From a virus (lineage: Duplodnaviria; Caudoviricetes), in the IMG/VR virus record IMGVR_UViG_3300031555_003155: a DNA stretch of 64,000 nt, one strand, 5' to 3'. Below are positions 54,243-54,525 of this stretch, piece by piece. The translations under genes were made by a program, and so were the position numbers. The notes beneath the pieces are model-generated. The model was not told where the DNA came from. It did not search any database and worked only from the letters and a program-made list of their open reading frames with translations. Positions within the stretch are counted from its first letter, which is position 1; the number at the start of each line of letters is the position of its first letter.

Positions 54243-54525
54243 AACAATAACATAATAATAAAACTATATCTATTTATATACTATTTTTAAAAATTTATTT
54301 TTTCTTGAGTACAAGAATATGACTAAATAACCCAAACTATTTGAAAAAATAGTTTGGGTGTAAGTGGGTACCGGGAGTGCGGGGAGCTCAGAATAGTATA
54401 AATAGAAATATAAGTATATAGAAAAGAATAGAAAAAGAAAAAGAAATAATAAGAGAATAAAAAAAGAAGATAAAAAATAGAAGAAAACAGTATCAAACGA
54501 TATTATTTTTTCTTCTATTTTTAAT
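54243..54525 (+). other. Structured non-coding locus: tandem promoter motifs, hairpins, G-quadruplex motif, purine tract (candidate origin or ncRNA)
   Basis: AACA-N6-TA at 54243 and 54249; 13-bp stem with GAAA loop 54330-54359; GGG-N7-GGG-N4-GGG-N5-GGGG 54356-54384; A/G tract to about 54487; terminator-like hairpin about 54473-54523. Confidence 0.5.

Follow-up and report, generated by a model that had tools for sequence, protein, structure and literature searches.

A conserved promoter, G-run, and purine-tract unit that encodes no apparent protein in an AR9-like giant phage: a possible transcription-dependent replication origin

Introduction

The subject of this report is a gene-free gap in the DNA of an uncultured giant phage. 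The stretch analyzed, referred to as the window, comprises 64,000 nucleotides of the virus record IMGVR_UViG_3300031555_003155 and represents the reverse strand of a 209,768-bp IMG/VR virus contig, which is estimated to be 85% complete and has a G+C content of 29.6%. The gap extends from 54212 to 54564 of the window, and its measured length of 353 bp agrees with the roughly 350 bp given in a preliminary description made from the letters alone. It is located between a 93-amino-acid Myb/helix-turn-helix (HTH) open reading frame (ORF) and a 165-amino-acid ORF. On the plus strand it features a late-type phage promoter, a folded 5' domain, a cluster of G-runs, a purine tract, and a terminator-like AU hairpin. 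Sequence comparison suggests a conserved unit of transcription without a protein product, present in single copy, and one such promoter/G-run/tract element is found per genome. The unit is tentatively read here as a transcription-dependent replication origin that resembles oriF of phage T4, a reading that is given somewhat less than an even chance.

The source, a giant uncultured phage, is assigned from its sequence to the AR9/PBS1 group as kin to Bacillus phage AR9. Phages of this group bring their own multisubunit RNA polymerases. The AR9/phiKZ-type giant phages are of interest because their DNA is shielded and their own transcription machinery is brought along, and the literature searched describes no replication origin for the phiKZ/AR9 group. 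The RNA polymerase beta-like protein of the window (1360 amino acids, 49456-53538, minus strand) matches PHROG 14872 with E = 6.5e-167, and its closest deposited kin, at 33-38% identity, come from the uracil-DNA jumbo phages PBS1/AR9, from jumbo phages of Staphylococcus, and from Yersinia phage phiR1-37. Similarity of the window to deposited phages at the DNA level was not found, and a scan for tRNA and tmRNA genes returned none.

Relatives were fetched with the beta subunit and the downstream 165-amino-acid protein as queries, and genes were called as crude ORFs. Nine elements were compared. The nearest relative, L012, is 66% identical in the N-terminal region of beta and 58% identical in the 165-amino-acid protein, and the seven distant relatives (L010, L202, L203, L205, L206, L006, and L207) are 42-51% identical in the same region of beta. 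The complete genomes G001 and G002 were used alongside the present 210-kb genome for comparisons of skew and composition.

Genes and layout of the locus

The 93-amino-acid Myb/HTH-like gene (53930-54211, plus strand) lies directly upstream of the gap and is limited to the subclade of the window, L012, and L200. It is the HTH gene that the preliminary description had placed next to the locus, and its HTH match is weak: Pfam Myb_DNA-bind_6 is matched below threshold and PHROG 323 ('transcriptional regulator, D5-like') with an E value of 4.5e-7. The L012 homologue is 37% identical. Directly downstream of the unit, as in every case compared, is the orphan gene of the P0002 family (54565-55062, plus strand) that encodes the 165-amino-acid protein. 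Homologues of this protein with 39-58% identity are found in L012, L010, L202, L205, and L206. Pfam and PHROG searches gave no match for it, and an AlphaFold model (predicted local distance difference test, pLDDT, of 81) has no convincing structural neighbor (Foldseek E > 0.3; VIA Z <= 6, helices only). In the relatives the positional homologues of the unit are flanked by the RNA polymerase beta gene and the 165-amino-acid orphan gene. The gene orientation flips at the locus, as described earlier, making it the main divergence point, and nucleotide-metabolism genes adjoin. Four metagenomic strain copies of the locus are 100% identical over 366 nt, so strain variation is uninformative here.

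Several independent assemblies stop in this region. The contigs L200/L201, L203, L208, and L237 and several short ones end between the polymerase and the 165-amino-acid genes; L237 breaks off at the G-rich part (equivalent to ~54371 of the window) and L203 breaks off in the purine tract. These repeated contig ends likely reflect coverage loss or strain variation at a site of extreme composition.

Promoter

The unit is headed by an AR9-type late (non-virion RNA polymerase) promoter, AACA-N6-TA, at 54249-54260 on the plus strand with a predicted start at A54260, and by an A/T-rich upstream block (AATAATTTTTAATTAAC..., 54224-54248, plus strand). The AR9 late consensus, established by experiment, is AACA-(6N)-TA/G, which is read by the non-virion polymerase and has the start site as its last base (PMC5312081). 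In the present genome AACA-N6-TA occurs at 209 sites, and 64/209 are in non-coding DNA, which makes up 9.2% of the sequence, an enrichment of 3.3-fold. The AR9 early-promoter core ATATATTAT is likewise enriched between the genes of this genome. Since the motif equals the AR9 late consensus and is enriched in non-coding DNA, it is the right promoter motif for such a phage.

Two overlapping AACA-N6-TA motifs had been proposed. Both are present, the second exact match being at 54243-54254, where its AACA falls in the upstream block, but only one of them is conserved. L012 keeps ATAACATAAT(A/G)GTA and the upstream T-rich block and does not keep the AACA at 54243, so the conserved motif is that at 54249 and the start is placed at A54260, where the promoter presumably fires. 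The late-promoter motif is found in 8 of 9 relatives, and a block AATTATTTTT(T)ATTA occurs 8-10 nt before ATAACA in L012, L010, L202, L203, L205, and L206. The promoter and the T-rich block are kept across relatives whose beta proteins are only 42-66% identical.

Two side observations concern transcription signals elsewhere. Outside the window (150138, 150774, 153466, 117891, 175606, and -19368 on the scale of the window) the motif AAAACATTTAT precedes the start codons of a group of genes by 20-30 nt and could represent another class of promoter or a variant of the late one. On the minus strand a 15-bp hairpin with a T8 run at 53597-53631, immediately upstream of the promoter for RNA polymerase beta, is the predicted terminator of leftward transcripts, and L205, L206, and L010 feature long hairpins at the equivalent place.

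Folded 5' domain

The 276-nt region folds with an energy of -64.8 kcal/mol vs -34.8 kcal/mol for shuffles (z = -7.7). The helix that closes the domain has its 5' arm at ~54263-54288 (plus strand), which pairs with ~54390-54416 in the minimum-energy and centroid folds, in line with the earlier proposal that 54265-54285 pairs with 54392-54412 and encloses the whole. Inside this helix are a small 6-bp hairpin, UUCUUG-AGUA-CAAGAA (54302-54317, plus strand), evident from both sequence and fold, and an extended stem-loop (54318-54371, plus strand), which consists of a perfect 13-bp stem with a GAAA loop (54330-54359) and outer pairs 54318-54324/54363-54370. Both the small hairpin and the 13-bp stem are found at the positions first described for them, and the 13-bp hairpin by itself has an energy of -16.6 kcal/mol. 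The domain also includes the box GAGCUCAG-N-AUAGUAUA (54384-54400, plus strand), in which 16/17 bases are identical in L012 and which is absent from the distant relatives.

A search for covariation in relatives, proposed with the preliminary description, revealed that the extended stem-loop is kept in L012 with three compensatory pairs. RNAalifold on the window and L012 returned 21 pairs, 3 of which show double-sided changes that preserve pairing. Two of these are in the 13-bp stem (A-U to U-A and U-A to A-U) and the third (U-A to G-C) is in the outer extension, which additionally contains a conserved U-G pair that fits the plus strand only. The small hairpin is replaced in L012 by ACGAG-UUU-CUCGU, a long AU helix of differing sequence closes both RNAs, and GNAAGUGGGU and GAGCUCAG-N-AUAGUAUA are nearly invariant between them. 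The covariation rests on three pairs because only one close relative carries the folded core; no trace of the core or its motifs was found in the seven distant relatives. Rfam searches of the window and relatives at gathering and permissive thresholds gave only chance-level hairpin matches, and exact-pattern scans of viral and metagenome contigs with TTGGGTGNAAGTGGGT gave chance matches only, besides the window itself and L012.

G-run cluster

The cluster GGG, GGG, GGG, GGGG (54356-54384, plus strand) forms a canonical G-quadruplex (G4) motif with a G4Hunter score of 1.45, and its first GGG (54356-54358) ends the 3' arm of the 13-bp stem. The motif had been called very unexpected in such AT-rich DNA, and the genome-wide count bears this out: G3+N1-7 x4 has its sole copy, on either strand of the 209,768-bp genome, at this site and appeared in 0/30 first-order Markov simulations. 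An exact-pattern scan with the G-rich 19-mer found no match.

The four-run motif itself is not conserved. Between the two boxes ACCGGGAGUGCGGG of the window is replaced by CCACGCGGCGAC in L012, which as a result has only two G3 runs, namely the first two, and no G4 motif. What is kept is the presence of G-runs: each of the nine elements contains 2-4 (G>=3) in its first ~125 nt, compared with a background rate of ~0.002 per nt, and C-runs are nearly absent. The other relatives have two or three runs, frequently with long gaps between them, and in the distant relatives the cluster is located 13-110 nt downstream of the promoter (e.g. AGGGGCCUU ... GGGGGAUCGGGG). Two neighboring G-runs in the non-template strand are the apparent family-wide invariant. 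Lack of conservation of the G-runs and stem had been named as a refuting outcome; the stem is kept in L012 and 2-4 runs are kept in 9/9 elements, and the four-run G4 is not kept.

It had also been proposed that the hairpin and the G4 exclude each other and act as a switch. The first G-run is indeed common to both. ViennaRNA calculations with a quadruplex term gave -25.7 kcal/mol for the two hairpins vs -4.3 kcal/mol for the isolated G4, the hairpin is favored by >12 kcal/mol, and the minimum-energy fold contains no G4. Together with the loss of the G4 from L012, these energies leave the switch unsupported.

Purine tract and terminal hairpin

The G-runs are followed by a low-complexity purine (A/G) tract (54401-54470, plus strand) that is the purine-skew extreme of the genome. 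The A/G-dominated tract of about 90 nt noted at the outset is present and contributes to the most purine-skewed 80-nt (54410-54489, 86%) and 120-nt (54373-54492, 82%) segments of the genome, and the segments at 54373-54492 are the only non-coding ones among the top ranks. Four of the five lowest-GC 200-nt segments of this genome are at 54.1-55.7 kb, and the G002 element contains a GC-free run of 182 nt vs 43 nt for the next longest in that genome. Based on nearest-neighbor energies for RNA:DNA hybrid vs DNA duplex stability, the 100 nt from 54355 rank second in the genome (z ~ -3.4).

The window and L012 both run into a purine tract of 100-120 nt and then into a long AU hairpin with a U-run. 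The other relatives feature C-poor, low-complexity tracts of 100-270 nt that are purine-rich in L202 and L203 and purely A/T in L010, L205, and L206. There is no sequence conservation among these tracts and their length and sequence change freely, which is expected if composition and not sequence matters. A periodic protein-binding pattern (5-nt or other, of the TRAP/Hfq kind) was not found in the purine tract. A triplex/H-DNA mirror repeat was considered and rejected: the 13+13 mirror at 54462-54487 was matched by 22/200 shuffles and L012 has no mirror.

The terminator-like element (54465-54535, plus strand) consists of a 27-bp AU stem at 54465-54524 and the U-run UUUUUAAUUUUU, and it corresponds to the hairpin that had been recognized after the purine tract. 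It is missing from a consensus terminator scan because its stem has fewer than the 3 G-C pairs required. Equivalent hairpins of different sequence are found in five relatives (L012, L202, L206, L006, L207). The AR9 RNA polymerases stop at predicted terminators, and transcription probably terminates at 54465-54535 as well. An early-promoter-like motif is located between the hairpin and the 165-amino-acid gene in L202 and L206, which indicates that the late-promoter unit stands alone there.

A possible replication origin

The anatomy, statistical extremity, conservation, and position of the unit are the observations from which we infer its whole replication role. The non-virion RNA polymerase would start at A54260 from the AR9-type late promoter, transcribe the folded 5' domain and the G-run cluster, and continue across the genome's most purine-rich and most readily melting DNA. 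Transcription would mostly halt at the AU hairpin and U-run, giving an RNA of ~265 nt. Transcription into this weak duplex could leave an RNA:DNA hybrid (R-loop), which purine-rich RNA and the G-runs of the displaced strand may stabilize. Stabilization would occur through a hybrid RNA:DNA quadruplex that needs only two G-runs and not through an intramolecular G4. A primer might then be produced from the hybrid through trimming by the phage RNase HI, in the manner of T4 oriF/oriG and mitochondrial CSB II (conserved sequence block II). The phage does encode RNase HI, as had been stated: a match to PF00075 of 128 bits is found elsewhere in the genome, at G000:C1:201955-202368. PF00075 also matches, more weakly at 30.9 bits, an RNase H-like frame at 63597-63977 on the plus strand of the window.

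The preliminary description had offered either an R-loop/G4-primed origin or an RNA switch. A promoter-driven, conserved non-coding unit whose architecture is like that of transcription-primed origins remains from this proposal; the intramolecular G4 and the switch do not. Whole-genome GC skew, suggested then as a check, gave a mixed outcome. The global minimum of cumulative skew in this genome is at ~53 kb, at the locus, and that of G001 is at 96,955, which is 1.4 kb from the element of that genome. The G002 element lies at one of two deep minima (major local, not global), so that the minimum is at the locus in 2 of 3 genomes. A strand-corrected analysis, in which per-gene skew was fitted to gene strand plus a side-of-switch term, placed the best switch at 55-62 kb here, at 91-97 kb in G001 (element at 98.3 kb), and at 27-55 kb in G002 (element at 48.3 kb). 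In all three genomes the best switch comes to within a few kb of the element, and its sign is that expected of an origin. This corrected skew supports an origin weakly, and the weakness of the duplex is the stronger origin evidence.

Several points weigh against an origin. Cumulative skew largely mirrors gene orientation, which is itself conserved by synteny, and the strand-corrected effect is small, with the element position in the top 6-13% per genome and a gain within the permutation range. Hybrid stability is not extreme in the G001 and G002 elements. The promoter belongs to the late class, the unit always precedes the 165-amino-acid gene family, and the folded 5' domain with its discrete terminator resembles an RNA gene. 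Neither iterons nor an initiator gene was recognized. On the side of an origin, primase profiles (PF01807, PF13155, and PF09250, i.e. DnaG zinc-ribbon, Toprim_2, and Prim-Pol) found no match in the ~85% complete genome; AR9 itself encodes primase, however, and given this and the incomplete genome the missing primase counts for little.

More doubtful than an origin at this locus is the broader notion that AR9-like jumbo phages start replication at one dedicated non-coding unit where a purine-rich R-loop primer anchored by G-runs is made by the non-virion polymerase, which would be a bacterial-virus counterpart of the mitochondrial light-strand promoter (LSP)/CSB II. As a conserved element present once per genome, in which a promoter for the phage polymerase is combined with G-runs and with the least stable duplex of the genome, the locus is a concrete, clonable origin candidate of ~350 bp. 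If the origin is real, initiation of replication would be tied directly to the phage polymerase, and the element would offer a handle for engineering such phages.

Alternative roles

Roles at the level of RNA, as a leader or a stand-alone RNA, are together nearly as likely as an origin. The late promoter could serve the 165-amino-acid gene, with the unit acting as a long 5' leader in which the G-runs are stabilizers of the STAB-SD (stabilizing Shine-Dalgarno, SD) type, binding 30S subunits and blocking 5' exonuclease, and the hairpin is a leaky terminator or attenuator that sets how much transcript reaches the gene. This is a possible reading that nevertheless falls on the unlikely side. It is favored by the constant position of the unit directly upstream of that gene family, by the lack of an evident separate promoter between hairpin and gene in the window and L012, and by the documentation of STAB-SD in Bacillus (PMC4113751). 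The G-runs of distant relatives (AGAAGGGG, AAAGGGG, GGGGGA) resemble the ribosome-binding sites of the phage (AAGGGGGA before the HTH gene). Additionally, AR9 has 5' leaders of up to 491 nt, and late and early promoters stand in tandem before its genes for replication and nucleotide metabolism (PMC5312081), which also counts against an origin. However, in 6/8 relatives the promoter is parted from the gene by a long hairpin with a U-run, a type of site at which AR9 polymerases terminate strongly; the early-promoter-like motif after the hairpin in L202 and L206 leaves the late unit alone. The G-rich part of L012 has no GGAG-like core, the G-runs of the window are ~100 nt from the start and within a folded domain, and a leader leaves the extreme AT-only tracts unexplained.

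Alternatively, the product could be a stand-alone, trans-acting non-coding RNA of ~265 nt made late in infection. Its folded 5' domain and single-stranded purine tail would carry the activity, for instance if the RNA titrates pyrimidine-rich RNAs, 30S ribosomal subunits, or an RNA-binding protein of host or phage. This role is rather improbable. A separate promoter and terminator, the very stable fold (z = -7.7), the three compensatory pairs and unpaired conserved boxes (GNAAGUGGGU and GAGCUCAG-N-AUAGUAUA) shared with L012, and the identity of the four strain copies over 366 nt are all consistent with it, and a second, clearly covarying RNA adjoins, which indicates that this intergenic region does host RNA genes. 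The folded core, however, is limited to the window and L012, and the seven other relatives feature essentially unstructured G-runs plus A/U; the tail lacks a periodic protein-binding pattern and no Rfam family is matched. Should the unit prove to be an RNA gene or a leader, it would still be an uncatalogued, strongly selected non-coding element, and the adjoining covarying RNA would belong to the same unexplored set.

The 13-bp palindrome could instead act at the DNA level as an operator or binding site of the adjoining HTH protein, for which the likelihood is low. The window and L012 have the palindrome together with the HTH gene, L010, L202, L203, L205, and L206 have neither, and matched changes of half-sites are equally expected from a dimeric binder. 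This co-occurrence is based on two genomes only, the HTH match is weak, the conserved outer U-G pairs only in RNA or on the plus strand, and such a site accounts for just 30 bp of the unit. Lower still is the probability of an RNA switch in which the 13-bp hairpin and the four-run G4 compete to control downstream termination or translation. In favor of such a switch, the G4 motif has no other copy in the genome and its first run is common with the stem, but L012 keeps the stem with only two G3 runs, the folding energies given above oppose it, and the hairpin is transcribed before the G4. A hydrophobic 57-amino-acid protein from the minus-strand frame 54496-54323 was rejected as a gene and is hardly credible, since the polypyrimidine strand cannot hold stop codons and the open frame is a by-product of it, starting at TTG without a ribosome-binding site, differing in length and sharing no conserved residues with a 39-amino-acid frame at the same place in L012, and having no counterpart of at least 50 amino acids in L006.

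Neighboring RNAs and other observations

The second structured RNA is better conserved than the unit and is located at 53640-53835 on the plus strand of the window, between the RNA polymerase beta start and the unit. Homologues are found in L010 5670-5850(-), L208 20-215(-), L203 310-520(-), L205 2630-2845(-), L206 2650-2885(-), and L202 3140-3345(-), and the RNA is also present in L200, L006, and L207. RNAalifold on six relatives returned 38 pairs, 15 of which have compensatory double changes. Its conserved boxes are a CAUACGAC hairpin, UGUCUCAC, and CUAUAGCGUCCUGAAAUCGUA, its 3' end consists of a hairpin plus GUCAUUAC-U6, and 53640-53835 has no Rfam match.

Other repeated or mobile features were seen in the relatives and the window. 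L010 contains at 3300-4030 (minus strand), beside a thymidylate kinase gene, an array of ~30-nt units, TGATTCATT-N9-12-GATACTA-N8-12, that may represent a guide-RNA (TIGR-like) array. A Nop/IS110-like gene of 294 amino acids (56684-57568, minus strand) is present in the window, which lacks an array of the TGATTCATT type. Group I introns are found in or after the RNA polymerase beta genes of L011 (8906-9214 and 10217-10521) and L203 (4594-4881), and HNH or NUMOD4 endonuclease genes are close to them. A 234-bp tandem repeat with 2.5 copies of 82% identity is located at 39426-40020 of the window, within a minus-strand coding block.

Comparison with known systems

The unit shares with AR9 the late consensus AACA-N6-TA (PMC5312081). 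A strict pattern scan of PBS1 revealed no equivalent promoter-plus-G-run element, and the gene order around the RNA polymerase beta gene of PBS1 is not the same as here.

The ColE1 RNA II pre-primer combines a folded RNA, a G-rich segment, and RNase H processing. At this locus, unlike in ColE1 RNA II, no antisense regulator or template C-run partner was identified, and conservation of the fold extends no further than the nearest relative.

The STAB-SD of Bacillus cry3A is an SD-like purine/G sequence that lacks a start codon and lies near the 5' end of a long leader, and it belongs to a Firmicute-type system (PMC4113751). The elements of L010, L202, L203, L205, and L206 have SD-like G-runs 13-25 nt from the start. 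In contrast, the runs are ~100 nt from the start in the window, L012 has no SD-like run, and the unit features two or more G-runs and a terminator before the gene.

[quoted passage not shown] The adjacent pair of G-runs is the point of likeness, and two tracts, the number needed at CSB II (PMC4176368), are present in 9/9 elements. The phage runs do not reach the length of the CSB II tracts and are mostly G3-G5. A hairpin sequesters the first of them in the window and L012, and termination apparently occurs at a separate AU hairpin ~100 nt further on.

The T4 origins oriF (uvsY) and oriG (gene 34) feature a phage promoter and an A+T-rich unwinding element within ~100-300 bp, and their transcript is proposed to form an R-loop that is trimmed by RNase H (PMC3016281). 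In T4 the host polymerase reads a middle promoter that depends on MotA, whereas the present unit has a late-type promoter for the phage multisubunit polymerase; T4 has several origins and one such element is found here. The T4 origins also lack the G-run cluster, folded 5' domain, and terminator that are predicted for this unit from its sequence alone. The likeness is in the arrangement, in that the promoter at 54249 is directly upstream of A+T-rich, melt-prone DNA and RNase H is encoded by the phage. The T4 unwinding elements are interchangeable and depend on composition and not on sequence (PMC3016281), and the tract described here, which shows free turnover of its sequence, is similar to them in this respect.

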